Assembly: GCF_964355755.1 (NCBI RefSeq)
Contig: NC_092672.1
Coordinates: 25,736,437 to 25,800,436 of the forward strand
Direction: 5' to 3'
Length of the DNA: 64,000 nucleotides
Source of the DNA: Antedon mediterranea
Lineage: Eukaryota > Animalia > Echinodermata
Below the pieces are notes generated by a model. That model was not told the DNA's origin. It saw nothing but the letters and a program-made list of their open reading frames with translations, and did not search any database. Positions 12,836 to 64,000 of this stretch are shown here, piece after piece (position 1 is the first letter of the stretch; each line of letters starts with the position of its first letter). The position numbers and the translations under genes are program-made.

Positions 12836-12879
12836 TTGTAAGTATCATACAACATAATAAATAATCAATTGCATTAATA

Positions 12880-14222
12880 ATCATCATTGACAATCATCAC
12901 CATCATCATTGACAATCATCACCATCATCATTGACAATCATCACCACCATCATTGACAATCATCACCACCATCATTGACAATCATCACCATCATCATTGA
13001 CAATCATCACCATCATCATTGACAGTCATCACCACCATCATTGACAATCATCACCACCATCATTGACAATCATCACCATCATCATTGACAATCATCACCA
13101 TCATCATTGACAGTCATCACCACCATCATTGACAATCATCACCACCATCATTGACAATCATCACCATCATCATTGACAGTCATCACCATCATCATTGACA
13201 ATCATCACCATCATCATTGACAATCATCACCACCATCATTGACAATCATCACCACCATCATTGACAATCATCACCACCATAATTGACAGTCATCACCATC
13301 ATCATTGACAGTCATCACCATCATCTTTGATAATCATCACCATCATCATTGACAATCATCACCATCATCATTGATAATCATCACCATCATCATTGATAAT
13401 CATCACCATCATCATTGATAATCATCACCATCATCATTGATAATCATCACCATCATCATTGATAATCATCACCATCATCACTGATAGCCATCATCATTGA
13501 AACCATCACCATCATCATTGACAATCATCACCATCATCGTTGATAATCATCACCATCATCGTTGATAATCATCGCCATCATTAGTGATAATCATCGCCAT
13601 CATCGATGATAATCATCACAATCATCATTGATAATCACCACCATCATCATTGACAATCATCACCATCATCATTGATAATCATCACCATCATCATTGATAA
13701 TCATCACCATCATCATTGGCAATCATCACCATCATCATTGATAATCATCACCATCATCATGCCATCACCATCATCATTGACAATCATCACCATCATCATT
13801 GATAATCATCACCATCATCATTGATAATCATCACCATCATCATTGACAATCATCACCATCATCATTGATAGTCATCACCATCATCGTGCCATCACCATCA
13901 TCATTGAAACCATCACCATCATCATTGATAACCATCAACATCATCATTGATAACCATCATCATCATCATTGTCAATAATCACCATCATTGAAACCATCAC
14001 CATCATCATTGAAACCATCACCATCATCATTGTCAATAATCACCATCATTGAAACCATCACCATCATCATTGATAACCATCATCATCATCATTGATAACC
14101 ATCATCATCATCATTGATAACCATCATCATCATCATTGATAACCATCACCATCATTATTGATAACCATCACCATCATCATTGATAACCATCACCATCATC
14201 ATTGATAACCATCATCATCAAT
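12880..14222. repeat. 22-bp minisatellite (catcattgacaatcatcaccat)n, about 60 units
   Basis: The ttga motif recurs every 22 bp (12887, 12909, 12931...) on a (CAT)n background. Confidence 0.95.
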
Positions 14223-17970: not shown

Positions 17971-19812
17971 CAGCGTTGCCAGCGATAAAATTTAAATTAT
18001 GCCGTATCCTGTCTCAAATAATGCCAGATTGGGAAAAATAATGCCAGATCCCCAAAATGTGGCCCTAATCAGCGCCACCAACGGTTGTATGTCTAATAAA
18101 CGTTTGTAAAACCCCAACTGACACAAAATAGGGCCTAAATTGTATCCCTATGTCGTTCAAAAATTGTATTTTTAGTTTTGTGAGTAATAATTCTAAAAAT
18201 ATCTAGGGTGCGAAAATGGTAATTGCAAATGACACAAACACCAACCCACGAACCCTTATCCCCCCCACCCCCCACCCCCCCCCACCTCCCCCCCCCACCT
18301 CCCCCAAAAAGAAAACTGTTACAGCCATGGGAAATTTAGAATTTTTGAGCTGAAATATGAGAGCTGCTCGATCTTTGCACTTAATTTCAAATATGAAAGG
18401 ATCTTAGCCCACCATAATTAGAAAATTATAATTTAAAATAGGAAATAAAAATATATATCTCAGCCCCACCATGGTTGATAAGAAAATTTTGAAAAATGCT
18501 CATGGCCGGAAATGCCACTTAATTTAAAAAATGAAATAAAAATATAGGCCTATTTATTAGTGTCTCCAGGATCTTAGCCCACCATAGTTCGAAAATGGCA
18601 ATTATAATTGAAAATAGGAAATCAAAATATATATTAAGTGTCTCCAGGACCTCAGCCCCACCATGGTTGGGACTGAGGTACAAAAATTTGGAAAATAGAG
18701 CTGCTCGATGGCCGGAAATGGCACTTAATTTCAGATATGAAATAAAAATATATTTATTAGTACCTCCAGGATCTTAGCCCACCATAGTTCGAAAATGGCA
18801 ATTATAATTTAAAATAGGAAATAAAAATATATATTAAGTGTCTCCAGGACCTCAGCTCCACCATGGCTGGTGCTGAGGTAAGAAAATTTGGGAAAAATAG
18901 AGCTGCTCAATGGGCGGAAATGGCACTTAATTTCAAATATGAAATAAAAATATATTTATTAGCACCTCCAGGATCTTAGCCCATCATAGTTTTGAAAATG
19001 GCAATTATAATTTAAAATAAGAAATAAAAATATATATTAAGTGTCTCCATGACCTCAGCCCCACCATGGTTGGGGCTGAGGTAAAAAAAAAATGGGAAAA
19101 ATAGAGCTGCTCGATGGGTGGAAATGGCACTTAATTTTAAATAAAAATTACCTCGCCCACATGGTCACTACAGGGGCTGAGAGGTGAAGAACATTTGGAA
19201 AAATAGGGTTGCTACGACGATGCAAATGGAACATAATTTGAAATATGGAAAACAAATTCTCCTAGAAGAAATTCTTTTTTAGTTACTGGAAATTGCCATT
19301 TCAAGGGTTGGGGTAGGGGTGCGGCCACTTATAATTATGAACTGAAACAACAAAACCCCTTTCATAATGTTTTCGTTCAATTGTCTCTATATCTGGGGAT
19401 CCAATAACCTGCATGATCTCTGAAATAGAGCAACATAATTGGCCAATAGCTAGCCTCTTCGGATTTGTTGTGCTGCCTATATCGCACACACGGTAGTTTT
19501 CGAGCAGCCTTCCTATCCGAAGAATCTATTTAAGTCCGAAACAAAAGGATGGAAGAACTATTGTACGGAAAACCCGAACAGATCTGTTTTGTACGATATG
19601 ATATTGTGTAAGGTGATATGTATTAAATTGCAAGATTAAACAAAATATTTTATTTTTGTTCTGTGGTATATCATTTTTTTGGTTGTTCAAAAAACACAAA
19701 ATTATGCCAGATTATGCTAAAAACGGCTAAATAATGCCGCGGCATTATGCCAGATGCCGTGGGCCTCTAAATAATGCCAAAAAGCATAATAATGCCAGAA
19801 ATGGCAACTATG
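17971..19812. mobile_element. hAT-like non-autonomous element with internal ~200-bp tandem repeats
   Basis: TIRs CAGCGTTGCCA / TGGCAACTATG. 8-bp TSD TGCAACAC at 17963-70 and 19813-20. Subterminal ATGCC repeats. GAGCTGCTC-containing units across ~18330-19240. Confidence 0.8.
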
Positions 19813-23772: not shown

Positions 23773-26700
23773 CTAAATAGGCCTATGAGGCTTATGCCTC
23801 TTAATTGGATATCTTTTTGGTGTAGATACTGGTCTAGGTTTATAGAATTTTGATCTTGAATGATATCTGTTATCATATTTTGACATCATTGAAATCATTG
23901 CTGCGCGTCTAATTGTTCCTGTAAACTGTTCATCGCTCAGTAACATATATCTACAAGTTTGTCCAGATACTGGGTTCACTTTGTACGTGTATGCTCTGTG
24001 ATCTACTAGTGGCCTATCGTCTAGCATCGTACAATCACTAAATGTTGAATTCAATTTATCATCAAATTCCTTTAAATCTTTTTTAAAATCTGGACCGTAC
24101 TCTGCAACTTTTTGCCAAAATGTTTTGTTGAAAAAATCGTAGAGTATTACGTCTGCGGAATTCCAATCACGTGATTTTTGTTTCAGATTATCCGAGAGAC
24201 CGAAACGCAAGTTTGTAACTCTCACTCCTTTAATAATGTATAAAATATCATCCATGTCCCAACACAAAAGCTTTTTAAGCAAAAGTAGAGACTCGTTAAA
24301 ATATTCCTGTAGAAGAACCAGGCTAAATTCCCGTGCTATGGTTTTAATGTGCAACTGAACTTTATCAACATTCGAATGTTCAGAAGGATCGAGACCCAAA
24401 TCGTACAATAAAGGATTTTTTAAATAGTTTCGCATCGAGAACTTCTCATATTTATCTAAGAAATATTGCGGTTTAGATATAAATTGCTCGAATGGGTTTG
24501 CCCGTTGTGATAAATTCAAATGTCGAAAAATTTGGAAGTATCCGAAAATGGATTCCGCTTGCGTTGCCGGATCGCGTAAAATGGTGATGTACTTTGTGTC
24601 TGGTTTCATCACGGCATCCATCTCTTTCCGATTGTATCGAACGTGGTTCACCAGCATATCGTACTTCCTACGAACGATAGGACGTTTATATAAGCCTGCA
24701 CTAATCACATGACCTTGACTTGGAAGAACAAAACTTAAGTTACGAAGAAATCCAAATCTTTGAAATATAGATGTTATAGTTGAACTTCCGGTTTTGTGCG
24801 TCTTTAGAAACACAATGCGCGTAGATGGTTTGCATTTGCTGCTATCTGACGTTTCTCGAATACCGTTTGATGCATTTGTTTGTTTAATACTATTTGTTGA
24901 AATGACTTGTTTGTCAATGCGATCCACAACGTTTGGTTTCAGCATTGTAGGCATACCTCTCTTCGAGTTTTTGCTAATCGATGTTACATTGATGAGTTTT
25001 GGAGGCGACGGAGTTACTTCTTGGTTTCCTGAAACATGTTTCGCAGCTTTACCTGTACTTCCATTTGTCTTGCCTGTTACAAGAGGATCTTTTGAAGAAT
25101 TTTGAAGATTAGCAAGCTTTCGTTCATTCTCACTAACAACAATACCATCTATTTTTACCTTCTCGATTTGAGAACCTATTTTATCAGCTGTCAAAACCTT
25201 CGTGTCGTTTCCTTTTAAATGACTTGTAGAATTTTCACTTTGATTTCCTGATCGATAGTTTGTTTCTAAACTGTTAACTTGTTTTGAATCTGGATGAGAT
25301 TCAGTTCTCAATACAGCTGACGTCACAGTTTGAGTATCGTTTCTTTTAACATCACTGTCATTGACAACATCATGTGTTTTAAAATGATTGTCATGTGATG
25401 ATGTTTTTGGAAAAGTTGTCGTATTCTTTCCTTTATTGTATTCAGCTAATAATCGGTTGTTATTTTGAAGAAGCGTAGGTCTACTGCTATTGTGACTTTT
25501 ACCAAATTCTTGCTCAATTCTAAATGAAGATAAAAAAAGATGAAAACACGAATCATTAGAAATGTTGGTCTATTGTCTTTTTGTGTATTGACAACAAGAT
25601 TTTGTCAATAATATGATTGTGTAGGAACAGGTAGGTAGTCACATCTGTCGACAACAGCCAAACACATTACAATGCCTGTGCATTTTGTATTCTACTTAAG
25701 TAACAATACATTTAATTAATACGTTTAACTGAATGTAATAGGAAGTAAATGGTAAATTAGCTTGCCATGATGGTTGTATTGTCACGCAAGCTGTTACATT
25801 ATATTAATGTAATTAAATTAGTAATTAAAATGCGAACTAAATACGACTTTTTGCATAAAGATGACGTAAACGTTTTAATTATGAGGTTCGCATTAATAAT
25901 GTTTGTTATCCATTTCTGTTTGCCACCGAACCGATTTTTCTCATTTTGTAGCGAATTGACCAATTGCTATCGAGAGTTTGGATGACCCAGGGCTTATGAT
26001 TGGTCCTTGCGTTGCGTCTCTAGTGTGAATGGTTCACAGTAGGTCAGTTTTATTTTTGTAAAAGCAGTCAGTTTTGGTTCGTTGGGCAGACAATCCGACT
26101 ATGTGTGAACCCATTCGGCCTAATTATAAGATCTGATTTGTCATCTTTAAAATTGCCCAAGTTATACAGTAGCCGTTGGGCTTGTATTCTGATATCTGCT
26201 AAAATACTCTTTATTTTATCGATTTTTGTGACTTTTATAAATCAACATAATTGCAAAGCTCTTAACAATAACAAGGTCATTCACATGGATACGATGATTT
26301 TAATTGACAACAAAGTAGACGACTTTCAAGAAAAAAGAAGGAGAAAAGACTGATTTTCTGCTTAATAGAAACAGGCCCTAAGATGCTTGTCAGACTAGCG
26401 TGTGTTTCAAATGGTGGAACATGACATTTGTAAACACATTTGACACACTACAGTGCAATACATACCTTTGCACATACATGACGATTATAAATATAATAAT
26501 TAAAATAGATAAATAATAAGTTAGTACTTCTATCATAATTATTAATTACGGAAACCATTGTATAGAAATGTGATATACATTTGAGTACACGCCCCCTCGA
26601 ATAAACGCCCTGCCACATGCATTATACACACACTATTGAATTACAACACATTTTTTATTTAGTAGAATTCATGATCTACAAATTATTAACAAAAATTTTT

Positions 26701-29700
26701 ATACAATTTTTACTGTATTTTTTCACTTCTCAATATTAATTGTGTAGAATTTTTTCATACCTATAGGGGATATCTATATGATTATAGCCTACATGTTATC
26801 ATATTGAACCCAAAAAATAAACGTCTCCCTCAAATAAACTATCCACTAAAAAACCCCCTGAACAATAACCGCTCCGGGATGTTTATTCGAATAAATACGG
26901 TAATTTTTCTTATCAATTTTAAGTTTTCAATTTAACTTTATTTCGTCCTCAGTAAAAAGGCAAATAGAACATAAAAAATATATAAAACATTAGGTTAAAA
27001 TACTTATATCAAACACATTTCATTAATTCAATTCAATTCAATTCATTTAGACATAATTATAATAAAATCAAAAATACAAACACAATAAAACTGACTGGCG
27101 GATTGTAGAAAAGTGACGAAGTCACTTTGTGAGTACTCTCCTTCTGGTGCGGACAAAAACAACAAGTTAACAGTAAAAGACATTAAATAAGGCAGGGAAA
27201 AACATCAAAATGTTATACAGATAAAACAGATGAAGTTACAAAATTATAAGTCATTTAAAAGTCTGATGGAATATGGTACAAATGAATTAAAATATCTGTT
27301 TGTCCGACTATTGTATGATCTCAGCAAGTTAATTTTTTTATGTCATTTTATTATAGAATGATTTAAATCTTCACATATTTACGTAGCCTTAGTACCGTAA
27401 ATCTTCTAATTGTAACCCTGGGTTATTATTCTTTGATTTCTTTTTAGGGTGGGTTACTATTAGAACCCTACTACTACCGTATTAGAGTAGTGGGTTACTA
27501 TTACTAATCTTAAATTAGGCACCTGAAAATGGTAACCCACCCCCAACTTTTCCAGTCAGCAACTCATAACAAAATAATAAAACTGTACGAATAAACAAAT
27601 TGGTTGAACTCTAACTTTATTTAATAAACTCAAAAACACTCAATCCTCCCCACACTCCCGAGATCAACATGCATTATCTCCTTCTTTTCAAAATACGGCT
27701 ACGTCATAGGTTTTTGTGACTCTAATAGTAAGCCCCATGGGTTTATTTATTTATTTATTTCGTTTTCTTTTAGTAGGGTAGCCCTCTCAGTAATAAAATA
27801 AAACTGCTCTTCCGAGGGGCCCTACGGCACATTTAAACAAAATTTGAAAACAACTTAAACTAAAACTTAAACTAAAACTAAACTTCAATGCATGTTCTCA
27901 TTATTATTATACTTTTATACCATATTTAAATATATTTCACTGGAACCATCCTAGACCACCGGCAACAATAAATGAATCTTAAGAAGTGATTTAAAACGGT
28001 TATAATTGTTTTGTTTTCTTAATTCATAGGGTAGGCCATTCCAGAGTGAACTTCCATAATAAACAAAACTACGTTTGTATATTTCGAGGTTACATCTGGG
28101 CAAATACAACAGATTATTTTCATAGTTTCTGGTTTGAATATTGTGTACACTACTAATATATTGCAAAACATCACATAAGTATGAAGGTACAGATTCTTGT
28201 AAACATCTAAATATTGTACAAATTGTATGATATTCAATTCTTGTCTTAATTGTTAGCCAACCTAAATCATGTCTAACAGGAGTTCGAATATCAGCACCTA
28301 GTATTAATCGTGCAGCTCTATTTTGTACCCTTTGCAATTTTAAAATATGGGCGTTTGAACCAGTACCCCAGACTGTTGAACAATAGTCAATATGTGATAA
28401 AAATAGAGCATTGTATAATCTTTTAATAATTTTAGGAGATGTAAAACTTTTCAATCTATAAAATAGATGTAGAATTTTTGATAGTTTTGCACATATAGAA
28501 TCAATATGTACTTTCCATGAGAGTTGTTCATCAAATGTAAGTCCCAAATATTTAAACGTTTCAACTTTCTCAATCGGAATGTTATCAAAAATTACTGTTT
28601 CATCTGTTGTTTTATTAAAACGTGCATGAGTACCAAAAAGCATGTATTTGGTTTTATCAATGTTTAGAGTTAATTTATGTTTATCTAACCATTGTTTTAC
28701 ATTTTCCAACTGTTCAGTTAAAACTGTTGTAAGCTCTTCATTTGATTTACATGCATAAAAAAGCGCAGTGTCGTCTGCATAGAGGACTGTTTTACAAATC
28801 CCATCAACACTATCATGTAAGTCATTTATGTATAAAATAAACAACAAAGGGCCAAGAATTGAGCCTTGTGGTACCCCATAGTTGACATTTAAAATTTCAG
28901 ATTTTTTTCCATTAAAATTAACAAATTGTTTGCGATTTTTTAAATAATTACTGAACCATGCAAGCTCAGTGTTTATCATTCCAAAGGTGCATAATTTACG
29001 TAATAAAATATCGTGGTCTACCGTATCAAACGCCTTTTTTAGGTCAAGAAAAATTGCTCCAGTTACCAAGCCATTATCAATATTTTTATATATATAATTG
29101 CATACATCTATCAGTGTAGTAGAAGTTGAATGTAACGACCTAAAACCAGATTGATTTTTACATAATAAATTAAACTCATTTATATGATTCATAACTTGAT
29201 TATGGATGCATCTTTCAAAAACTTTCATAACAATAGGTATAACAGATATTGGACGGTAGTTGTTAAGTTCATGTTTACATCCTCCTTTATAAAGCGGAGT
29301 AACCTTAGCACATTTCCATTCACTTGGAATAACACCAGATCTTAATGACCAGCTAAACAAAAAGGCAAGACTTTGAGAAATTTGTGAAGATGCAATTTTA
29401 AGTAACCTAGCGGAAATCCCATCAATTCCAGTAGCTTTTCCAATTTCTAACTTTTCCAACAAAGCTTCAATTTCATTTCCATTAATATCTTTAAAGTTGA
29501 AACGTTGTTGAAATTGTGATAACGATTCAACGGTAATATCGTTTTGGTTGTCATTAAAATGGGATGCAAGTTCATTAGAAATTGAATAAAAATATTTATT
29601 AAAATGATTAGCAATATCAGTTGGATTGTTTATTTCATTACCGTTTACATTGAGAGTTGTTTTAGTTTGTTTCTTTTTATTGGGTAAAAAGTCTTTCATG

Positions 29701-32700
29701 GTTTTCCATAATGTTTTAGTGTCATTAACATTATCCTTTAATTTATTATTTATATAGTCGCGTTTTAGTGATTTAGACAAATTATTTAATTTATTTCTTG
29801 CCTTTTTGTAAGAATTCCAATCATCTATGTTCTTAGTTTTTTCGGCTTTTTGTTTTAAATAATCACGGTCACGAGAAAGGGAAACAAATTCGTCTGTAAG
29901 CCATGGAATATCAGTTCCCTTCCTCCTGACCGTCACCATAGGAGCATGAATATCACAAATATCAGTAAAAATGTGTTTCCAAATGTCCCAAGCCTCGTCA
30001 GCATCCTCGGACGCCTCACAAATACTCCACGGAGCAGATGCAAGATCAGAAATAAACAAATCTTCGTTAAATTTCCGGAAGGTTCTCGTATGTAAAATAC
30101 GCGGGGGCAATTTTATTTTAATTTTTTTACGTATTGCATATATCAATGAGTGATCGCTAATTCCAATTGGTACAACTCCAGTTTTGCTTATAAAGTCATC
30201 CCTATTTGAAAAAATTAAATCAATACAACTACTACTGTTTTCCGTTACGCGCGTTGGAGTTTTAATATACTGGTTTAATTGGAAAATTTGGTGGAGGGTT
30301 TTAATGTTCCGAGAATGCTGTTTATCAAATATATTCCAATTTAAGTCACCAACAACAATAATCTCTCTTATACTATCTAGTATAAAAGATATTTGATCAT
30401 GCATTATATCAACAAATCCAGTACACGAATTTGGTGGTCTATAAACATTACCTATAACGAACGGTTTAGTGTTAACCGGCTTAATTTTTATCCATACCGA
30501 TTCAATTGTATTTTCACCAAAGTCAATGACATCAAAATCAACATTTTCGTTTACATAGATAGCCACCCCACCTCCGTGTCTATTTCTGTCTGTTCTAACT
30601 AATAGGTATCCTGGGATTGCAAGTTCACTATTATGTATATTTTGATCTAGCCAGGTTTCACTAATTCCTAAGACATGGAAACGGCATTCTGAAAGTAAAC
30701 TCCGAACATGGTCCACCTTATTATAGAGACTTCTGACATTTAAATGACCAATTTTAAAACCCTTTGTACAATCAATCTCGCATAATTTGCATAGTATGCC
30801 AAAAGCAAAATAAACAATAGAGTCGTTACGTAATTCAGCGTCGTCTACGTCGTTGTCTAAAAGGCTTCCCCGTACGATGTTCGTTTAACAATTGAATTGG
30901 TTTAAATGGTTTATTACATGCGTTACAAATAAAATCTAAAATCATCTTATCTACATAAAATACAATACAGATTTAGGACATTTAAAATTCTTACACATTA
31001 CCTTTTACATTTAGGTAATTGTTTAAGATCGGAAGTTCTGGATAAAACAACTTTCTCGTTACTGCCAGTGATTATGGTATGTATGCGACCATCTTGTGTC
31101 CAAACTGCAGATACCACTGATGCATAGTTTTGCTTTACAGTACGTAGTAAACTTGATCTTTTGCTCGTAAGGTTTTCATGAATGTAGATATGGCTCCCCT
31201 TTAATTTTTTCTTTGCTCTATATACTTCATTTCTAACATTATACGAACTAAACTTTACTATTATTCCTCTTGCTCTTCCGTTTTTCTTAACTTTTGGCTC
31301 CAATCTATGACTCCTGTCTATGCATGTTTTATCTACTTCTACGCTTAGCTTTTTCTTAAACAAATTCAAAACTATATTGTCTGTTATCTCACCTTGTTTC
31401 TCTTCTATTCCTTGAATAATCAAACAGTTCCTTCTTGAATATTGTTCTGCTTCATCTAGCTCATATTGTAAGTTCTCTACCTGTTGTTCTACTTTGCTGA
31501 GACGATCTTTAGTATCGTCAAGTTCGAAACGTATTGCTTCAATTGCTGCATCCGTTACAATTTGTGTAATGCTTTCAATCAGCTGATGTTTAACAATGCT
31601 CGCAATTTTCTCGGCTAGGTCATTGAAAATACTCGTATTTCCTTTAATTATATTGGAAATTTCATTTTGTACAGTAATAGTAAGCGGTTCCACATCAATG
31701 ACAGGTGCTGTATCAGTGTTCAGTTCGCAACACTCCTTACCGCTGTCCTTTTTACCACCTTTCCTTGTATTCTTTCCGGCCATGATGGTGTATTAATACG
31801 TACATGTACAGCAGACAAAAACCGACAAGTAAATGCTAGGCTACAGGAGTGCCCTAACACAACAGCTGTCCTGCGGGAAATTTGAACTGTCACCGCGTAG
31901 TGAGGCTGAATGTAGTGAGGCTAGAGAGAGCGATTTAGGACACGTCTGCTCTTAACGACGACTACACTACTACTTGTCTTTTTGTGGGTTATTATTATAG
32001 ATTGACTTATAAGGTGGGTTACTATTGGCAGATTTACGGTAACTATAATTTTGTTGCATGTAAACTAAATTAGGGTTAGATCCTGTGATCCGACCCGCTT
32101 TATTTAGTACTAGCTTGGGAACACTTGTTCAGTTTCACATAATGGGGAGAATGGAGATGGGGCTGTTTTGTGAAATAACGCAAAATGATATAAAGAATAA
32201 AGAAGCACTGTCATCCATTCGGAAGGACAACAAGTGAGAATGTTGTGAAAAATGATTGAACAAGTTATGTTTAGGTTTTAGGCATGGCACTCACTCCACT
32301 AATTTGAGTGTTTTAATTGAGTAGGTCTATAGAAGATTTAACATTAAGATTAAATTTACACCCCTCTCAAATATTGTTTTTTATTTGATTTTTTTTTTAA
32401 TATCTCTAATCAAAAAGTAATTATTATCAGGTTCCAAATATTATACATTGTTGTATTATTATCAAATTATAAATATTTGTATATCTTATATTCCATCATT
32501 TATAACACTATATAGCAAGTTGCGTTTTTACAATGTATGGCTCTGCTCACTTGCTTAAAGCAGTGCTTCCTATATTTAGTACAAATTAATTGATTTTTAT
32601 TATAAAAAAAAGTATTATGTAATTGGATACCTGAATGCATTTTGAGTTATCTTGGCTGTGTTTTTATTATTATGCAAAACTTCACATTTTAATAAGTAGG

Positions 32701-51254: not shown

Positions 51255-52754
51255 AGGACCCAAAAAATCACTTTGCATACATTGTAATGCTATTTTGTGT
51301 GATAATATTACGTTTTAAGGATATGAAATGAAATCATGAATGCTCCATGTCTTTGAATTTGTGTTAGTATGTCAATTAGTTAACATACAATTGCCATTGC
51401 CAACACAACAATGATTACACATTATTGTTGCTATAGCATTTAATTTGGTCTTGAATATTCCCTAATAAATATTGCATAATTATGCCAATGCTATCATTGT
51501 GTTTTATATAATATTTTTCACCAATTCTGTCAATATTTCAAATAGTATAATTTTTCTTGTAATTGTCGAGTAGCTCGCTGTTGGATGCGTATGAAATAAA
51601 TAAATAGATATTGTTGGTATAGTCTTGACTTTGCTATGGTGATTATGACCATCTGAAAAAGGGTATTCTGACATTTAGTTACATAAGGTTTTGACTTTAT
51701 AGGGCAAAATAATTTACTAAAGTTTATTATACTAATTTTTATTTTATTTATTAAATTAAAAAATGATCATATTTGTCTATTCATTTTATTCTTTAATTAA
51801 TTTTAACGTATATATTTTATATAGGCCTACTTGTTTACTTTCCTTTTGTCTCAATTATTGTGAAAAAATCAAAAGAAAATTCGGTTATTTTGAAGTTATA
51901 TGTCTTCATTACAGTTGTTTGTTCTGCGTCTTGTTCTGTTCTTTTTAAAGTTTATGGGCCCCGGCTGCCTTTCACAAGCTTTGACTTTATTAAAATAAAA
52001 TTTCCCCTCTTAGTTAGCAAAAGGATTGTTATTATCATGAATTTATAAGATAAATAATTTCTTATTTAACAAAAAGGCGGAAAAATTGTTGACGCTTCTG
52101 CACATGTGTCTGAAATTAGCATACCTCATGATCAGATGATCATGATCAGATCAGATCACATTATATATATAATGATACTAAATAAATATTTTTCTTTAAA
52201 TAAAAAAGGGCTATAGTTATAACAATCAACGACAACGAATTTTACTTTATATTATTATTTATTTTATATTCTTAACCGAAGCATGTTTATTCAGTCTGAT
52301 ATTATGTAGTATTTATATCTTGGAAACATTAATTTATAACACAATTTGTATGTATACTTGTATGTATGAGTAAAGTACCTGATCGTATAATAGAATTAAG
52401 TTCATTAAAAAATGTTATGAGATACGAGAAGAGTTAGTACCTCATATCATTTTCCACAAGAAATAAATATAAATGTTAAGCCTTTATGATGAAAATTACT
52501 AATATTTTAATAATACAGTAGTAGATAAAAAAATGTGTTTCTCAAACATTTTCGTTTTGAACTTTGGTAGCATGTTTAGAAGCCATCCATTGATAGGATG
52601 GGGAATGAAGATGAACCTTTTTTTAAATCATTGAAGATTGGAAAATGATGTTAGGAAAATGGTTAGAAAAGTAATTATCTTCTTTGTAACGCAAAGGTAT
52701 TTTATAAAAGTCGATCTGGTAAAATTTAAATGTTGTCTGATATTTACATTTTAG

Positions 52755-52836
52755 CTGGTGCCATCCAATGTTACCAATGTGTAGATTGTGATAAACCAAA
52801 AGATAGCATCACCTGCCCAGCATCAGCTGACACATG
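52755..52836 (+). pseudogene. Ly6/uPAR (three-finger) domain exon interrupted by an LTR insertion
   Basis: Polypyrimidine-AG acceptor, phase 1, then (A)GAIQCYQCVDCDKPKDSITCPASADTC, the Cys1-Cys5 pattern of LU domains. The LTR begins inside the fifth Cys codon. Confidence 0.65.
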
Positions 52837-52926
52837 TGTGATGGGTTTGTCACACGGAAGTGAGCCCTCTAGAGTAAAAGAGGTGAGATGAATAAAGATG
52901 GACGACAACTACAACGTGTTTTGTTA

Positions 52927-53696
52927 GGGTGTGTAGAAAGCGACGACCTCGAATTGGACGACCCCAACGACCCGGGCGACCTCGAATTGGACGACCTAGA
53001 ATTGGACGACCCATAACACGAAACCGACGACCCTAGCCTAGCCTAGCCTAGGCCTAAGTGAAATATCGCCATTTCATACTGAATGTGTCGACACGAACAA
53101 ACGAACAGATATGGAACATCATCATTAAAACTGCATTCGATCCGATTAGCACACGAAATACCAGGTCAAAACGGCCCCTTTTTCAGCGGCGGGTGAGAAG
53201 GTTTGACCGTATACAATGCATGTGTGAAATGTAAAGCTTTTCTTATGGCCCTCCCCCCATGCACATGTTCGCAACACGCTGCTTGGTAGGCCTATAGTGT
53301 TCGTTATAAGAAGACCAGATGTAATTATACGTCCATGGTTTAACCATGTAATGTATAATATTTATTTCTTTTTAATTTATTTTTAATATGTCGAATGCAG
53401 TTTTAATGATGCACTCTTGGCGTTCCATATCTGTTCGTTTGTTCGTGTCGACACATTCAGTATGAAATGGCGATTTTCTGTATTTTTTCAATCAATTACT
53501 TGCTTGCGAGTATTATATAAGGTATGGTTTAAAGATCTTTGGCTATGTTCGGCTTCGGGATGTTATACCACACTTAGGCTAGGCTATAGGGGTCGTCGGT
53601 TTCGTGTTATGGGTCGTCCAATTCTAGGTCGTCCAATTCGAGGTCGCCCGGGTCGTTGGGGTCGTCCAATTCGAGGTCGTCGCTTTCTACACACCC
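52927..53696. mobile_element. MULE-type MITE inserted in the 5' LTR
   Basis: ~110-bp TIRs GGGTGTGTAGAAAGCGACGACC... built of GACGACC repeats, plus an inner inverted pair. 10-bp TSD TGTTTTGTTA at 52917-26 and 53697-706. Confidence 0.85.
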
Positions 53697-54106
53697 TGTT
53701 TTGTTATGTTCTTATTGTTGGTTTCAGCCTAACGAGCGAGCCCGTAACAAATTGGGGGTCATCCGTGAACAAAGTACGGAATTGTAGTTGTAGATCGAAC
53801 TGATGGTAATTTTAGTTACTTATTCTAAGCTGGTTTTAGGTTTAGAGGCGTTTTATAACGAACGAGATTTGGCGGTCGTCGAGCCAGTAGTAGTACACTG
53901 TGTTGTTGTTTTAGGCTTGTGTAGGCTTGCCTGTGATACTAGAAGTCGGTTTGGCTTTGATTTTAGGGGTCTAGTTATTGAGACCACGGCGCACGGTAGG
54001 TTTAATACTGTGTGGGCGTGGCAGGTAATTTATTACTGGTGCCTTAATTATCGTCATATTGGTTATTTTAACCTGTGTTTTTGTTTGTTTGTTTCAAATA
54101 GAAACT

Positions 54107-57100
54107 ATGTCAGAAAGTGATTTTGACGAGGAATTTTTGGATAGCATGTCCATTGAGGTGGTAGCTCAGCTATCAGAGAGGAGCGTTTGCGACTCCTAGG
54201 TACTAGGGTTGGAGCATCTATAAATGATTCCATGAATAAATATGACTTGATAAATGTGATTGGAAGTCATGTTGGTTTAATTACTCATGAATCCGTAAAT
54301 ACTGCGGGAAATGAGGTAGAGTTGGCTAGAATCGCATTGGAACGTGAAAAATTAATTTTTGAAAGAAGAAAAATAGAGATTCTAGAGATGCAAACTCAAA
54401 GAGAAATGGAAAAAGAAAACATGAATTTGAGTTAAGGAAATTAGAATTAGCTAACCAAATGGGTCACACCACACGGGTTTCTACACCTAATGATTCAGAG
54501 ATTACTCAGAATATTAAATGGGTTCCCAAGTTTAATGAGGACGAGGTAGAGAAATATTTTTTAGCTTTTGAGAAAATTGCTAATAGATTAAAGTGGCCTG
54601 CTAGACACTGGACTGTGTTGTTACAAACTGCTCTTGTGGGTAAAGCCCAAGAGGTGTTTTCTGCATTGGCTGATGATCAATGTGAAAGCTATGATGCGGT
54701 TAAAACTGCTGTTTTGTCAGCTTATGAGTTAGTTCCAGAGGCGTATCGTCAGAAATTTAGGAACTTAGGTTAACCTGATGATCAAACGTTTACAGAATTT
54801 GCACGTAAGAAGCAGATTCTTTTTGATAGATGGTTTAGTTCGGAAGGAGTAAAGGGTGAATTTGGAAAGCTTCGTGAGCTTATGTTAGTTGAGGAGTTTA
54901 AATCTTGTTCCCCTACTGAAGTTCGTACACATCTGGAGGAGCAGAAAGTTGATAATTTAGTGAAAGCGGCTTCTGTTGCCGATAATTATGTGCTCACGCA
55001 CAAGGTGGTGGATACCAAATCGGTTTCCAAATCTGTTGGTGATTCTAAGGTCCAAAGTCAGAAAACTACAGTTAATAGTAGTAGTAAATTTGTCAGAACT
55101 TGTTTTTACTGCAAGAAAAAGGGTCAAATAAAGGCAGATTGCTGGCTGTTTCAAAGCAAATCTAAAGGGGATAATAAGAAACCCCAATCACTTCCAAACA
55201 CGTTAGTAAATACAGTCCCGTTGAAAGTGACAGCGAGTCATGACGTTGATGAATGTGAGAAGTTGATCCAATCTTCAGGTCCGGGAAAAGTGCGAAAGCT
55301 ATTTAAGCCTTTCCTCTCTACTGGTTCTGTAGCATTGATCAACGATGTGAATCTGAGTAAAGTTCGTGTCTTAAGAGACACAGGGGCGTCACAATCCCTG
55401 ATAATAGAATCGGCATTGTCATTTTCAAACGAGTCTTCTGCTGGAGCAAGTGTGCTCATTCAAGGTGTTGAAGGGGGTTATAAGGAAGTCCCACTTCATG
55501 TAGTTCGGATTGAAACAGATATTGTTAGCGGAGATTTTGTTGTCGGTGTCGTTCCGAGTCTTCCAGTATGGGGTGTCACACTCCTTTTGGGGAATGATTT
55601 GGCCGGAGACAGAGTGACAGTAGAACCGGTTGTGTGCAAGAGTCCTGTTGAAGACGAAAGCACGGTGTGTTTAGAGAAAGAATTATCACATGTGTTTCCA
55701 TCATGTGCGGTGACGCGATTTATGGCAAATAAAACCATAGATGAGGATTAGAGTATTGACTTATGTGATAGTTTTTACGGAGACATTACGGATCGCGTTT
55801 CCCAAGAGGCTGTCTGCTCAGGTCCCGAGTCACACATTGCCCAGGCTGAACAACAGCACCCAAAAGTGTGTGATTTCGGACCAACAATTCTCAATCGGTC
55901 TAGGTTAGTGGAAGAGCAGAGTAAAGATCCTGATTTGGTGTCATTTGGTCAGCAAGCTCTTTCTGTAGAGGAAATGTCTATTGTTCCTGTTTGTTATTAT
56001 ATAAAGGATGGCATACTTATGCGTAAGTGGAAGCCACCAGATATTCCAAGTAGTGATGTTTGGAATGAGATTCACCAGATAGTTATTCCTAGTGGATACC
56101 GTCAGGATATTATTGGTATTGCGCATGATGATCCTCTTTCAGGTCATTTAGGTGTCAATAAAACGGTAGACAAAATTCTCAGGCATTTCTTTTGGCCAGG
56201 TCTTAGAAAAGATGTGTCTAACTATTGTAAATCCTGTCATGCGTGTCAGGTAGTGGGGAAGCCTAATCAAAAGGTTCCAGTAGCCCCACTTAAGCCTATT
56301 CCTGCATTCGGTGAACCATTTTCAAGAGTTATTGTTGATTGTGTGGGACCATTACCACGTACTAAAAATGGAAATGAGTATCTATTAACAATAATGTGTG
56401 CATCAAGTAGGTTTCCAGAAGCGATTCCTCTTAGGCGTATTACAGCTAAGAATGTTGTTAAAGCATTGGTAAACTTCTTTACATGGGTAGGATTGCCTAA
56501 AGCTGTTCAGTCCGATCAAGGATCAAACTTCATGTCAAAGATATTTAAACAAGTCTTAGAGCAGTTAGGTGTTGCCCATATAAGTTCAAGTGCTTACCAT
56601 CCACAGTCTCAAGGGGCACTTGAGAGATTTCATCAAACACTTAAGAATATGCTTAAAACCTATTGTTTTCAATGTGAAAAGGAATGGGATGAGGGAGTTC
56701 CCTTATTGTTATTCGCTGTTCGTGAAACAGTGCAAGAGTCCTTAGGGTTTAGCCCATTTGAGTTGGTGTATGGTCATTCGGTCCGAGGCCCTCTTAAAAT
56801 AGTCAAAGAAAGGCTGTTAGGGAATGCAGAAGAGTCTGTATCGATACTAGATTATGTGTCTGAATTTCGTGATCGATTAAATCGTGCTCGTGAGATGGCT
56901 AGAAAGAATCTTGTGAAGGCTCAGGGTAAAATGAAGAGATTGTTTGATAGGAAATCAGAAAAGAGAAGCTTTAGTTCAGGTGATGAAGTGTTAGTTATGT
57001 TGCCTCTTCCCAGTCAGCCATTATCTGCAAGATTAGCTGGTCCTTACAAAGTACTAACAAGAGTAGGAGAAGTTGACTATGTGTTAGATACTCCAGATAG

Positions 57101-58552
57101 GCGTAAGAAGAAGCGACTGTGTCATATAAACATGTTGAAACCATACACAGCGAGAAATAATAGTGATACCTGTACGTCAACACCAGTTACGTGTGTTGTT
57201 GAAGAGAATTCTGAAGAGTTTGGGGATCCTGATACATGTGTTAAGTTCAGTAATTCAGATGTTCTTGCAAACATTGAAGAGAAAGTTGGTCATTTATCTC
57301 GTGATCGTAAGGTTGAAATTGTTAGTTTGATATTTGGAAATCTGCAGTTGTTTTCGGATGTTCCAGGTCGAACGAACTTAGTGGAGCATGACGTTAAGAC
57401 AGCTGATTGTTCACCAATAAAACAAAATCCATATAGAGCAAATCCGTTCAAAATGAAGATATTACAAAATGAGATTGATTACATGATTAAGAATGATATA
57501 ATCGAGCCTAGTTGCAGTGCTTGGAGTTCTCCATGTATATTAGTTCCGAAGCCAGATAAATCGTATCGTTTTTGTACTGATTATCGGAAGGTTAATGCCA
57601 AATCTACTACAGATTCATATCTCATACCGAGGATAGATGACTGTATTGATCGTGTGGGTAGTGCTAAGTTTGTCAGTAAATTTGATCTTCTAAAGGGTTA
57701 CTGGCAAATTCCTTTAACCGAGCGTGCGAAAGAAGTGTCAGCTTTTGTAACTCCTATGGGTCTTTATCAGTATAAGGTCATGCCTTTCGGTTTAAAAAAT
57801 GCACCAGCCACGTTCCAGAGATTGGTTAAGGGTATAATTTCAGGGTTGGAGGGCTGTGAAGCTTATATAGACGATTTGGTTGTGCAGAGAATTAAGGCAT
57901 TGTTTGATAGGTTGACAGCTGCAAATTTGACAGTAAATTTGGTGAAAAGCGAGTTTTCGTGTGCAGAAATTGTGTTCTTAGGTCATAAAGTTGGTTGCGG
58001 AAAAGTGAAACCATTAAGTGCTAAGATTAAGGCAGTCTGTGATTTCCCAGTTCCAAAGAGTAAGCAGGAGTTAATGCGGTTCCTGGGAATGGCTGGGTTT
58101 TATCGACGTTTTTGCAGAAGTTTCTCAACGCTTGTAGCTCCATTAACGAATCTGCTGAAAAAGAATGCGAGCTTTGTGTGGTTGGAGGAATGCAATAATG
58201 CGTTCATTAAAGTTAAAGCGATGTTATCAAACGAACCGGTGTTGATGGCTCCACAATTTGATAAACAGTTCTCGTTAATGATTGATGCCAGTGATGTTGG
58301 TTCTGGTACTGTGTTGGCGCAAAGAGACGAGAATGGTGTTGACAAGCCGGTGTGTTTCTACTCGAGAAAATTCAACCAGCATGAGAAACGTTATTCTACT
58401 GTTGAGAAGGAGACATTAGCTTTGATGTCAGCGTTAAAGCACTTTGAAGTGTATCTTGGATCTACTCCGTTTCCAATTGTAGTTTGGACTGACCACAACC
58501 CATTAACGTTCTTGGCAAGAATGAAAGACAAGAATCAACGCTTGTTGAGATG
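54107..58552 (+). pseudogene. gag-pol polyprotein pseudogene of the Gmr1-like element
   Basis: Frameshifts in gag, stops at 54771-73 and 55749-51, a deletion right after YIDDLVV, and truncation at NQRLLR. Confidence 0.88.
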
Positions 58553-61500
58553 CACAGCTGTTTCAACTAGTGTTAAGATATCAGAAAAAGTAAAGCGCCC
58601 TCAGTGTTAGCAGACGACGCTCTCCGATCCGCGCGAACTTATGAATTTTGTACACAAACCATTATTTCGCGAACGCCAAATTAAATTTTGCTACCGTTAG
58701 TTTTTATGTAGAAAACACATTTTATATAAAACCAAACGATTAAAAAAGTTTATGTTCAATTAAAAAATCAATATTTTATTGTTTCTTTAATATAAATTAA
58801 TAAATAAACGACGATATTGTCCATTTTACTGAAATAATCTCCCACACATAAACCAGGAAGTCGATAGAAACTGTGTAATGAAATAGTAAACAATCGTAAG
58901 TAGAAAATATCATTGTATTCCTAACTTATTTTTTGGATATAATTCATTTTTTTAGAAAAAGAACGAACTAGAATATAGGCCATCATTATTATATAAATAA
59001 AATAATACAAGTTATGTTAATATAGCCTGGTTCAGTTTTTAGTAAAACTCGCATATTTTGCAACCCTTTTATACATTGTTATTGTTATCGGCGAGAAAAC
59101 TGTTTGGCGATAGGCTTAGAAAGTGCGTTGAAGCCGGCGATAAACTTGACAGTAATGTGGGCCTAGGATGAAGCTAGGCCCAAACATAGAAAATTCGTAG
59201 TAGTAAAACCTTTAATTATCCTAATCCTAAATTTAATCATTATAACTGTTATCAAATAATTAATGGCATGTGTTTATAATAATAATTATTGCTTTTCTGG
59301 TGCATTTTTAGGCTAGCTGGTGTGACTGAGTGACAGTCATTACTGTAACTATACTACTATTATAGGCCTTTATAAAAATTACACATACAATTACAAATAT
59401 ATTTCACAGATAAGCTGCGGAGCTATTTTTATTTAAAATTTTTTATATTATATTTTATTTCATATACAGTAATGGAGTTTCACGAAAGGGCATTGAGTTC
59501 CCTTTGCTACTGTTGCGGAAAAAAATTTAAAATAAAAGATGTAAAGTACACTTATGAATATAATTTGGATCCAAATCTTAAGTGGCTATGTGGAAGCTGT
59601 CACGTTAGCGCACTTGGTGGACACAACATAACACCATTTAATTTCAAAGACCATGGAGACAAATGCTTAGCGTGCTACTTATTCAGTCAACAATCAAGAC
59701 CTGGTCGAAGGCTGAAGAAATGCAAGTTTCCCGAAAACAGAAGCAATACTACTGGCAGTTTTATTCCCACTCATGAGCACTTGCTACTAAATCCTCAATT
59801 TAAAATTTTTGAAAATTACGATAATCAAGTGTATGAATGTCAGATATGCAATAATTTGTTGTCAATTGACAGCCAGCAGACGCCTTGTCAACATTTTTTT
59901 TGTACATTTTGCATAAACAAATTGTTTAAGGCAGTAGGACGAGAATCAATTGATTGTTTTAACTGCAGCCAAATTGTCAGTAACAAAGATCTCAAACCAG
60001 TTCCACTTATTGTAGAACAATCGCTTAAACGAGTCCTTTTGCAATGCAAACAATGTAAAATTCAATTAGTTTGGTCAGAAACCCCCAATCATGTTTGCAA
60101 AACGTTTAAAGAACAGGCATTCACCAAAATTTTAAGTGCAGTTGAAGAAATTACATGTACTGCCCAAACAAATGAGGTTTGGCCAAAAGAATTGAAAAGC
60201 ATGGCACACAACATAGTACGGAAAGACCTTATGAATAATAAGAAAGTGTCACTTATGACTCGAGGACGGGTGAGTTTTTTAACCCATTACAATTAATTTA
60301 AATTTATCATAATGTAGGCCTACACTCTTGATTCACTCATTATACATTATTATTTGATAAATCATACAAATATTTTATTTGATCAAATTCAGCCAATCAA
60401 CATTGTTAAACAATCAGAGTGCACAACAACTGTTAGTGTTACCAGTACTGAAGAGAAAATGGACCCCCAAAGATGTTTGGCAATCATGAATGCCTGCCGC
60501 ATAAATTGGAGCCAGCAACGAGCACTGCGGAGGTAATTTATTTTATTATTGCTTTTCGTGTCGGGTATGTGGACCTCCGTTGGGCCACACAGCCACTGTT
60601 TACTATTATTCAGTCAACAGTTTACTTTTTTTTTAATTGAATTTAGAATACTATAGAAAACTATAAAAACTATAATTAATCAGTACTGTATATACATTTT
60701 TTTTTTAATATAGATTTTGCCCAGGAGTTTTGGCTTCTGAAAGGCAAATGCGCATTTGCCAAGAACAGATTATCGGTGATCACATAGTAGATTCTATGGA
60801 ATACATGTTTGTCAAACGAGATGGAGCCACATCTATAGGAGGTCTTGTTTTGGAGGAGGTTGCAGTAGTCCGACTAACCAAAATCAAAGAACTAATCTAT
60901 GACTACCTAAACAAATATGATATGTATGTAACATTTTTTGTTGTTATTTTTAAACAAACCTATTTCATACATCAGTACTGTATTATTGGCACAAATTATA
61001 TATACTATAATAGATCGCATGTGGTATAAATATAAGAATAAAATAATTACAAATCTAGTCAGGGAAGACTTAAATTATATTTAATTTTGTAACAAGCAAT
61101 TTTAAATTTTGTAGGTCTGATGAATTGAACTTCTTCAAAGATGGAGACATATTTCTCAAGTTTGGAGGAGACAAGGGTGGTGATACCACTAAATTTGAAG
61201 TTCAAATTTGCAGTTTACCTAAACCCAATGCGCTGCACAATATTATTGTCATTTTGGCATTCCAAGCACCAGATTTTATAGTTAATGTCGAAAAAGGCTT
61301 GAAACTGGTTCTTGATGAAGTCATGGATTTAGATGGAAACCAGTGGACCTCACCAAAGACCAAAAAGTAATATTAAATACAGTAGTATAATATTGGAATG
61401 AGTAACACTGACTTAAGTATATAGCAGAGCTACATAATTATAATATGCAACTTAATTTGAAAATGTTACATAATTTGTATATCTTTAATTATGATTAATG

Positions 61501-64000
61501 TAATTAATTAGAATTCATGGTAATTGAATGAAAATAACTTCTCATTTTACAGAACTCACAATATCCGCCTATTCTTTTTTGGGGATTATGATTTTTTGTC
61601 AAAGGTATATGGACTTGTTGGCCCAAATGGTAAGTACAATTTCCAGTTTCAATACAATTTTTTTTTTATATTTTGGCTATTAGCTCTCATTGTTTGGCAT
61701 TTGTTACACAAAACTGAAGTACTATATATATTATGTAGATTTAAAAATTGATTTTTTTAAAGGAAAGTACAGTTGCATCTATTGTTTTTGTAATCAAGAT
61801 GACATTAGAACCAACAATGTTCCTCAAGCCTGTAGATGTCTCAAGACCTACAATCGTGACTACAAGTCTTTTGTAGACCATGGGAGTGACAAAAAAAAAA
61901 GCAAAACAATATCGCACAGCGTTGTTAGGCCATACCTGGTACACATCGAATTAAACAGGGTAGGTAAATAATCATAACAGCACAGGTCCCCAGTGTTTAT
62001 GTTAGGTTAAATTCAAAATTAATTAAAATCTCAATTTAGAAAGTTTAATACACACTCCAAACAATGAAATGTGTGTTTGTACTTCCATATTAAATAACAA
62101 TGTTAGTATAAAATAACTGTCAAAACAAACAATTGTTACAGTAATTTATAAATATACCTCTTTATTAAATATTTCCTCAACTATTTTTCCAGGTGTCAAT
62201 ACCAGCATTACACATTTCTCTTGGGTTGTTTAAGAAACTCTATGATATGCTGGAAAAAGACGTGCACAATCTTGATGTTATAATTTTTAACATGCGACAG
62301 GATGGTGACATCTTGACTGGTAACTTCAAATGTTGTTTTAACTTTACATTGACATTAAATAAACTCAATTGGTGAAGTTGCTTTTAAAATATACATTGTC
62401 CCTTTCAGCATAGAATTCAGTAAATTTCGAAATTGTTTATCCTGTTTTTATGCATAATAAACAAACCTTTGGCTGAAACTTATTTTTCTATGAATTATCC
62501 ATATTATCATTAACATTTTTTAAATATACTCATTTTGATGCTCATTTTTGATGCAGATTGAAATTTATTTGATTGACCAATATTGTTTAATCTCAGGTGA
62601 TCATCTAGCAGACTTTGAGAAAAGCATATCAGAAGCTGCAGCGCATCGAAATGCTACAATGATTAAAATCCAGTCTTTAGAAGAGAATCTTGAGGATTTA
62701 AGAAACGAGCTCTCAGTGTCACTTGTGACAAAACAGCATAACAAGATTGCAGAGATTGCAGAGACTGGCCACAGAATAAATCTGAAAGAACAAGAGGTCA
62801 AAGACTTGGTCAGTACTACAGTATACACCTTTAAAATTTAAAATTATGTCTAAAATATACAATACTATAAAAATTAATGCTATATTTCTTTTATATTTTA
62901 TATAGCGAAGCACTATGAACCAAGAGATAAAATTTGGAACTGGACCTCTATGTACAAAAATGGACGAGGTGTTGAGGAAGAATAAAATTCCTCGACAGCA
63001 GTACCACGGAAAGAGTTTTGTGGGAAACCATGTATACAGAGCATGCAAAGTGAGTAACTAAAATTTCTAAAATGTGAAGTTCGTTAATTTTTACACAGCA
63101 AAATAAGTAATAAAATTAAGAATTATTTGCGATTGACTCTCGCCATACTGTAAACGTTTTATTTTAAACTATATATTTTATTTTTAGTTCAACATCATAG
63201 AAAAGCTCATGGATGGTGTCTCAATGACTTTAAAGCAACAGATACATCACTGTCCTACAAACTGTAAGCAACTGCTAGAAACAAAATTGCACAAGATACA
63301 GGAATCATTTACACCTGTATTCAAAACCTTTACTAATGTCCATGAATGCATAAACCATACGAGGCGCATCACTGATTCAGAAATAGATCAATATGGTAAG
63401 CAAAAACTGATGACCAAATTATGTGAATTTTGTCTGGTTTTATTTATTCTTAATGTGTGATTAATTTCTTCAAACATCTGTATAATTTAAATTCTCATTT
63501 ATAAACTTTCTTGTTACATTAAAATTTAATTCATGATTTTTTGTCATTTCAAAAGACAATACATCTTTCAAATAAAATATTAAATTTTTTTTCACAAAAC
63601 AGAAACCTACATACAACTGTTCTCCAAAGAATACAGACGCATCGCTCCAAATGTGATTCAACCAAAATTGCACATGTTGGAGCACCACACAATACCGTTC
63701 ATGAGAGAATGGAGAGTAGGAGTTGGACTCTTAGCTGAGCAAGGCGGCGAATTAATCCACTCAGAATTTAATCGCCGGAAAAGGGCGGTATATGGATTAA
63801 AGAGCAACCTTGACCAGCTTATGTCAATCATGAAGTCACATCTGACTTTTATTTCACCCGAGATCCAGCATGAGGTGACTAGGCCCAAGTGCAGAAAAGT
63901 TGAGGAATAGTTTGCTATTTCTCACTCACTTAATTGTTACAGTATTGTACATATTATGAATGGTAGTGGTTTTTTTGTTATTGCCAGAACAATGATTTTG
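58553..64000 (+). mobile_element. CAC-ended DNA transposon of the Chapaev / RAG1-like group; right end outside the window
   Basis: Retroviral homology stops abruptly at AGA TG|CACAGCTG and the composition turns AT-rich. A spliced DDE transposase gene follows. Confidence 0.85.
59472..63910 (+). CDS. Chapaev-type DDE transposase with a RAG1-like N-terminus, ~890 aa. Exons 59472-60269, 60393-60532, 60714-60923, 61115-61366, 61553-61629, 61763-61959, 62193-62319, 62597-62808, 62906-63049, 63188-63395, 63603-63910
   Basis: Ten GT-AG introns, all phase-compatible; 2673 nt of exon sequence with no internal stop seen. N-terminus: H-x7-CYCCG..CGSC..H-x3-CxxC, C3HC4 RING, CxxC..HxC, RGRP, PQRCLAI...WSQQRALRR. 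Core: KFGGDKGG (D), FFGDYDF (D), CIYC, PALHISLG, YHGKSFVGNH, PKLHMLEHH, GLLAEQGGELIH (E). Confidence 0.88.

Follow-up and report, generated by a model that had tools for sequence, protein, structure and literature searches.

Near the right-hand end of a 64,000-nucleotide stretch of the genome of the feather star Antedon mediterranea (contig NC_092672.1, positions 25,736,437 to 25,800,436; here called the window), a long-terminal-repeat (LTR) retrotransposon is interrupted by the left end of a DNA transposon, and behind that end lie the eleven exons of a transposase gene (Table 1). In this report, we found that this is very probably an intact and spliced gene, encoding the transposase of an autonomous, RING-bearing Chapaev element that was likely mobile in the recent past. 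Chapaev transposases are distant relatives of RAG1, the recombinase of antibody genes. An earlier reading of the locus, made from the sequence alone, had described a RAG1-type N-terminus joined to a Chapaev-type core at 59472..63910 and had proposed that the arrangement bears on how the non-core region of RAG1 was assembled.

The gene, the element and its copies

The sequence-only reading was right about the gene, which it took to be an intact 11-exon frame of about 890 residues. Joined by their coordinates in the window sequence, the exons give an open frame of 890 codons and a stop across ten GT..AG introns. These introns are 97-277 nt long, and the GC content is 38.6% in the exons versus 23.2% in the introns. 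In a chance control, the open frame was kept in only 3 of 200,000 random picks of nearby GT/AG sites. Further, the RefSeq protein XP_071961268.1 (P0005), from another locus of A. mediterranea, aligns with the window product over 890/890 residues with no gaps and three substitutions. The translation contains GGDKGG, GDYDF, LHISLG, EQGGE, PQRCLAI and SQQRALRR. The catalytic candidates proposed from the letters, D (61170), D (61584) and E (63749), are D402, D478 and E838, with first bases at those positions; the CxxC and HxxxH(H) zinc ligands proposed with them are present in CIYC (497-500) and HMLEHH (812-817).

Contigs of the public runs X1, X5, X6 and X9, placed on the window, supply the junction evidence. 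Introns 2, 4, 7, 9 and 10 are joined GT..AG in X5 contigs, and introns 2 and 10 in X9 contigs also, and the proposed splicing stands at these junctions; among the joints listed, none for the transposase introns comes from X1 or X6 contigs. The RefSeq model P0001 ends within intron 4. Intron-retaining RNAs (P0001, and intron 1 in X5) would yield N-terminal fragments without a complete active site. Upstream of the coding exons, one X9 contig has a GT..AG joint (58895 to 61877) that uses a donor at 58896, and an acceptor-like site stands just before the ATG; a non-coding first exon is thus likely, and the 58896 donor may pair with the acceptor at 59469.

The element begins at 58553 (CACAGCTG...), upstream of the interval first described, and extends past the end of the window. 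Contigs of X1, X5 and X9 track the host retrotransposon to 58552 and then diverge from the window, and these are empty sites; in X5 and X9 contigs, two different flanks sit before 58553. These facts place the left end at 58553. It starts with CAC, and 11 of its 13 bases equal those of the terminal inverted repeat (TIR) of a related locus, L056. No reverse-strand RAG2L candidate was found upstream of the gene within the part of the element that lies in the window, no second copy or second end of the transposon elsewhere in the 64 kb, and no Rfam match in 52000-64000. The host retrotransposon has a SCAN-like gag, high summed read depth and Pfam matches to SCAN, rve, RVT_1 and RT_RNaseH, the RNase H match reaching 58550; we take its domain order to be Gmr1-like.

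The sequence-only reading had supposed a young element, and the copies agree with this. The P0001 cluster comprises five proteins on three chromosome-size contigs, with 0-3 substitutions each and, in P0003, a 3-residue gap as well. P0004 and P0005 are on one contig yet differ, and there are therefore at least four loci. Protein searches with exon 1 and with residues 230-467 of P0001 returned only P0001. A joint from 59339 to 61664 in X5 has a matching loose end at 59338/59339 in X1, X5, X6 and X10, and a further deletion joint runs from 63025 to 63826. The derivative segments have many base differences in common, and summed read depth, which is not copy number, is far higher at 58600-59400, at 61650-63025 and from 63826 onward than in the coding-only part. 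The joints, shared differences and depth point to an abundant internal-deletion family, traces of which occur in organisms A, B and C. The element is thus young and multi-copy, and likely recently mobile.

Table 1. Window positions of the transposon, its transposase exons and the interrupted retrotransposon
Feature	Positions	Strand	Evidence
Host LTR retrotransposon gag-pol, integrase before reverse transcriptase, cut in the RNase H domain by the transposon	54363..58552	+	
Left terminus, candidate left TIR, CACAGCTGTTTCA	58553..58565	+	empty-site contigs, other flanks
Left subterminal region, common to abundant internally deleted derivatives	58553..59339	+	joint, loose ends, depth
Putative intron of the 5' untranslated region: donor GTAAGT at 58896; pyrimidine tract, AG two bases before ATG	58896..59469	+	sequence
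Exon 1: compact Chapa/NZD, C3HC4 RING, C2HC finger, RGRP motif at end	59472..60269	+	
Exon 2: predicted RAG1-core-like fold begins (helices 291-314)	60393..60532	+	intron 2 joint in X5, X9
Exon 3: pre-RNase-H segment, DUF1280 match begins	60714..60923	+	
Exon 4: predicted RNase H strands, D402 (GGDKGG), DUF1280	61115..61366	+	PF06918 E 7e-11; intron 4 joint in X5
Exon 5: D478 (GDYDF), the second Asp proposed as catalytic	61553..61629	+	after predicted strand 468-476
Exon 6: C(2)C zinc ligands C497/C500	61763..61959	+	invariant, 25/25
Exon 7: LH motif (L564, H565)	62193..62319	+	invariant; intron 7 joint in X5
Exon 8: long insertion modelled as a helical hairpin (601-683)	62597..62808	+	structure model
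Exon 9: conserved QxYH.KSFVGN motif	62906..63049	+	alignment; intron 9 joint in X5
Exon 10: predicted helical insertion domain	63188..63395	+	model; intron 10 joint in X5, X9
Exon 11: H812/H817, E838 (EQGGE), basic C-terminal tail, stop	63603..63910	+	24/25 rows

The transposase core and the ends of its relatives

A Pfam scan of P0005 places DUF1280 (PF06918) at 351-455 with 52.9 bits against a cut-off of 25 (E 5e-14), and finds no RAG1 family at E<=1. DUF1280 corresponds to Chapaev transposases, as an excerpt of PMC3985635 has it. A search with the core returned 26 homologs of 27-39% identity, all with DUF1280, from sources that include echinoderms, Hydra and abalone. For the core alignment, 24 of these were taken with P0005 (25 rows), P0011 and P0015 (40% coverage) being excluded; the tree was also built without the truncated P0031. 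D402, D478, C497, C500, L564 and H565 are invariant in 25/25 rows. H812, H817, E834 and E838 are kept in 24/25, the exception being the truncated protein. The C(2)C, LH and H(4)H motifs are those that the available portion of PMC4079192 describes for Chapaev, and with DUF1280 they bear out the assignment of the core to this superfamily. Several of the homologs also bear a RING, and RAG1_imp_bd lies above the Pfam cut-off in two and below it in one. By a count made by eye, another member of the set, P0021, has 52 of 66 residues in common with the Chapaev-4_HM row of the RING alignment.

In the tree, the window protein pairs with a second Antedon family, and three sea-star proteins join the two in an echinoderm clade (100/99). 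This neighbor, P0006, is a second Chapaev family annotated in A. mediterranea (37% identity).

In an AlphaFold2 model of the protein (predicted local distance difference test score, pLDDT, 79.3; predicted template modelling score, pTM, 0.63), an RNase H-like sheet carries D402 on its first strand; D478 comes after a later strand, and E838 opens a C-terminal helix. We prefer E838 to the equally conserved E834 as third catalytic candidate because it stands at the start of the modelled helix 837-850 and because of the RAG1 motif. D402, D478 and E838 are thus predicted to sit on an RNase H scaffold, with C497/C500 and H812/H817 as a probable zinc site. Foldseek ranks RAG1, BbRAG1L and HzTransib at the top. 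By VIA-align, the model matches RAG1 (4wwx) with Z 26.5, a root-mean-square deviation (rmsd) of 4.1 and 15% identity over 464 aligned residues, followed by BbRAG1L (6b40; Z 25.0, 14%), HzTransib (Z 17.2, 11%) and the P element (Z 12.3). The overlay on RAG1 that had been suggested as a check therefore supports a predicted RNase H-like DDE fold.

Closeness to RAG1 is another matter. No solved Chapaev structure was among the matches of either fold search, and RAG1 therefore comes first in the ranking by default. Core identity to RAG1 and BbRAG1L is 14-16% over 457-467 structurally aligned residues, against 27-38% to Chapaev-type homologs, and the window protein is not nearer to RAG1 than its relatives are. 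In the Atlas search, DUF1280 or unnamed animal clusters rank first, with RAG1 clusters behind, and the family profile reaches BbRAG1L at best with E 0.53. The likeness to RAG1 once seen in PQRCLAI..SQQRALRR yields no significant sequence match. The structural alignment to the RAG1 core starts there, at model residue 286 (RAG1 459), and this stretch thus belongs to the core and not to the non-core N-terminus; exon 2 alone has no PDB sequence match at E<=10.

Related loci were gathered from metagenome contigs; of the 80 kept, the 69 with a plus-strand core match were examined for ends. Core matches in these loci are flanked by 49 CAC-ended inverted pairs of at least 10 nt. A 4-bp target duplication accompanies six of the pairs (L031, L056, L073, L074, L076 and L080) and a 2-bp one five, while duplications of 3 or 5-8 bp occur in none; most of the remaining pairs are nested repeats or microsatellites. 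Five of the 4-bp elements are 4.4-4.9 kb long and one is 6.2 kb, with TIRs of 10-13 bp, e.g. CACGGGTGTTTCA (L056). They end 518-678 nt past the core, which leaves no room there for a second gene. These ends fit the terminal hallmarks given for Chapaev in the same portion of PMC4079192 (CAC ends, 3-4-bp target duplication). They do not fit RAG transposons, which according to an excerpt of 10.1101/100735 have a RAG2L partner and a duplication of 5 bp.

In two of these loci, L074 (about 8578-16512) and L076 (5065-12849), the Chapaev copies are enclosed or adjoined by long inverted repeats. One TIR pair recurs in L074, L076, L079 and L080, which are one young family with several insertions.

The N-terminal zinc modules and other features of the window

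A Chapa/NZD motif and a RING finger had been recognized at the N-terminus, and both are there. All eight Chapa/NZD ligands are kept (H4, C12, C15, C40, C43, H61, C65 and C68); H4-x7-C12xxC15...C40xxC43...C65xxC68 aligns invariantly with five relatives, and H61 was read from the sequence. The C3HC4 RING at 123-165 scores 26.2 bits with PF00097 (cut-off 21) and 56.7 bits with a leave-one-out RING profile, a score that 0 of 500 shuffles reach. The C2HC finger consists of C192, C195, H207 and C209.

The domain layout is known, and only the shortened front zinc domain is unusual. The first CxxC-to-CxxC spacer has 24 residues, compared with more than 32 in 128/128 relatives (median 42), a set from which three short-spacer rows were dropped as mis-parses (two 5'-truncated, one without the last CxxC); it is 38-50 in the aligned homologs and related loci. 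The domain measures about 65 residues from H4 to C68 and is without the central helix and the D-x4-HP motif. Farther along, the stretch between the GRP motif and W305 has 39 residues; in 11 of 13 relatives it has 82-91, and in the other two 44 and 49. Compared with most relatives, the segment ahead of the core is short by about 50 residues. The missing segment is not hidden in intron 1, because that intron has only 123 nt.

Model confidence is low at 21-35 and, when the region is folded alone, at 1-106; the N-terminal fold search therefore tested only the RING. The RING module matches RAG1 (1rmd) with Z 12.5 and an rmsd of 3.8 over 110 aligned residues, and by sequence its best PDB match is again RAG1 (E 8e-5), but TRAF6 RINGs lie within 2 Z of the RAG1 RING. 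Residues 1-84 alone have no PDB sequence match at E<=10, the RAG1 NZD entry 21wb included, and their Atlas leads are all under 0.9. A profile of six N-termini does match mouse RAG1 101-373 (E 5.7e-22) and 21wb (E 9.5e-11). It also collects 870 clusters at E<=1e-10, many of them probably RING-only. The best 150 of the 870 are mostly Chapa+RING proteins, and 131 of the 150 fit an eight-ligand-like pattern. When 18 longer N-terminal matches were scanned, DUF1280 was found in 7 and a RAG1 core family in none. Kapitonov and Koonin (2015; PMC4411706) described Chapa, RING and C2H2 modules on a Chapaev core as the state of two Chapaev subgroups, and their Additional file 5 holds seven such elements (Chapaev-1/2_BF, -1/2_NV and -4/6/7_HM). 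Thus, a RAG1-type N-terminus on a Chapaev core is the normal state of this family, being common on DUF1280 proteins and already published.

Two further proteins carry related N-terminal domains. P0032 (1239 aa) has five CXXC fingers, a Chapa/RAG1_imp_bd domain and three RINGs, with no transposase core match, and is possibly a gene-model fusion or a host capture of a Chapaev N-terminus. P0146 (1290 aa) has three RAG1_imp_bd/Chapa repeats and no Chapaev core match.

Elsewhere in the window, a gene for a leucine-rich-repeat (LRR)-Roc GTPase at 7828-12184 (+) is followed by further open reading frames (ORFs), one death-domain-like by eye, in an immune-receptor-like layout. One long ORF at 23773-25569 (-) has a galactose-3-O-sulfotransferase domain. 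A long interspersed nuclear element (LINE) at 27951-31792 (-) is apparently intact, its ORF1-like (264 aa) and endonuclease-reverse transcriptase (977 aa) frames being open; a broken LINE lies at 146-2861. An element resembling a miniature inverted-repeat transposable element (MITE) at 52926-53697 has perfectly inverted arms of 108 nt and, inside the element, nested inverted repeats. Tandem arrays occupy 12880-14220 (22 bp, 62 copies) and 18497-19143 (200 bp, 3.2 copies).

Mobility, origin and significance

As predicted, the 890-residue product would excise the element at its short CAC-ended inverted repeats by means of the RAG1-like DDE core, and the element would be pasted elsewhere, likely leaving a 4-bp target duplication. 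By analogy to RAG1 and Transib, the chemistry may be that of a dimer that nicks and then forms hairpins. RGRP could contact the DNA end, the RING and C2HC finger could act as a dimerization or E3 module, and the internal-deletion derivatives could be mobilized in trans. The same kind of analogy suggests that the element may be active at present.

Several points weigh against the main explanation. Introns 1, 3, 5, 6 and 8, for which splicing had also been proposed, were not found as joints among the contig joints listed, and the single X5 contig over intron 1 retains it with intron 2 spliced out. That X5 is RNA is a guess, and none of the runs is recorded as RNA. Residue 189 is L in the window copy but P in P0005 and in the X1, X5 and X6 contigs, and the copy P0004 carries G837V beside E838; some copies may therefore be inactive. 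The leave-one-out Chapa profile scores only residues 1-21, at 6.6 bits, and 3 of 500 shuffles reach that score; the Chapa domain is eroded. The right end and target duplication of the window copy lie beyond 64000, the window ending 90 nt past the transposase stop. The rows of the tree are Chapaev-type homologs only, without RAG1, RAG1L, Transib or a named Repbase Chapaev.

The most durable rival holds that this is the same element, now immobile, that its burst is over, and that the short Chapa domain and pre-core segment reflect decay and not compact design. We consider this possible but doubtful. The spacer of 24 residues where 128 relatives have more than 32, the low model confidence in the same region, the intron retention and the substitution near the active site in one copy all speak for it. 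But the eight Chapa ligands are kept, the compact form is present in both proteins that cover the region (P0001 and P0005), a contig of organism B spans the region gap-free (59544-59887), and the read differences at codons 37 and 70 change no residue (among the 40 best-supported of 204 places). The compact Chapa may still work as a minimal domain, or it may be decaying. A Chapaev that is still active and combines the smallest two-zinc NZD/Chapa domain known with a nearly absent nonamer-binding-like segment is, in our estimate, rather unlikely, and we offer it tentatively.

Two other explanations are highly improbable. If RAG1L lineage or a chimeric "missing link" were at hand, with a RAG1-type N-terminus captured onto a Chapaev core, the locus would be informative on the assembly of the RAG1 non-core region. 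In its favor are the RAG1 matches of the RING by sequence and structure, the family profile that matches RAG1 across NZD and RING, the type-I ligand pattern as in RAG1, and a core fold closest to RAG1 and BbRAG1L among solved structures. The same N-terminus, however, sits on DUF1280 cores family-wide, the core falls well short of the identity to RAG1 seen in RAG1L and TransibSU, and the first rank of RAG1 is a default. The proposed bearing on RAG1 non-core assembly was thus overstated. Domestication of a Chapaev transposase as a host gene would accommodate the ten introns, the intact frame, the spliced contigs in two organisms and exon 1 read differences that are synonymous in 5 of 6 cases (among the same 40 best-supported places), but the transposon end is kept, the site is inside a retrotransposon with empty sites elsewhere, and near-identical copies occupy at least four loci on three contigs, alongside deletion derivatives.

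For the very probable Chapaev transposon, then, the account of RAG1 origin is unchanged, because the layout is already published and widespread. A Repbase entry for the family, or an equally short Chapa domain in preprint supplements, may already exist. A literature search for an active Chapaev or a transposition assay returned only papers on other families. An intact, spliced, young copy with a defined left end is thus a plausible starting reagent for Chapaev biochemistry, and its shortened Chapa domain offers a natural deletion test for which of the NZD helices are required. If the compact element is indeed still active, it would define a minimal RAG1-type N-terminal zinc fold, provide the first working Chapaev transposase in which to compare hairpin chemistry and RING function with RAG1, and possibly regulate itself through intron-retaining N-terminal isoforms.

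Comparison with known systems

With vertebrate RAG1, the window protein has in common the predicted core fold, the RING/C2H2 module, family-level NZD homology and the type-I ligand pattern. It differs in its low core identity, in being encoded by a mobile element, and in that the helices after the GRP motif, which we take to be the nonamer-binding domain of RAG1, are largely absent.

The RAG1L, ProtoRAG and TransibSU elements resemble it in a CAC start (that of a candidate left TIR here), an intron-containing transposase in invertebrate deuterostomes, the predicted fold and the H-x7-CxxC module. Relatives of the window element, in contrast, have 4-bp target duplications and no room for RAG2L, unlike the 5-bp duplications and RAG2L of that group. 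Further, RAG1L and TransibSU cores are more than 30% identical to the RAG1 core (PMC4411706), compared with 14-16% here; TransibSU is without a RING (PMC4411706). Transib proper has a DDE core with a C(2)C/H(3-4)H zinc site (excerpt of PMC12730594), a likeness matched by the fold comparison with HzTransib, and its canonical target duplication is 5 bp in the portion of 10.64898/2026.08.26.747230 available. It lacks Chapa and RING according to PMC4411706 and 10.64898/2026.01.24.700457, as far as the excerpts of these sources extend, whereas the window protein has both and is only 11% identical to HzTransib.

The closest system is that of the RING-bearing Chapaevs of the CMC group. They have the same order of Chapa, RING, C2H2-type finger and DDE core, the H-x7-CxxC start, type-I ligands, the C(2)C, LH and H(4)H motifs and a CAC terminus, with a 4-bp target duplication in relatives of the window element; the RING row of Chapaev-2_BF even has 'IDC' and 'DLKPV' in common with the window protein. 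Chapa domains were modelled and divided into types I and II in the NZD preprint (10.64898/2026.01.24.700457), an excerpt of which describes their function as not yet validated experimentally. Unlike these elements, the window copy has a compact Chapa domain (spacer of 24 versus a median of 42), a short GRP-to-W305 segment and ten coding introns, and its protein has 890 residues where full-length Chapaev relatives have about 950-1190.

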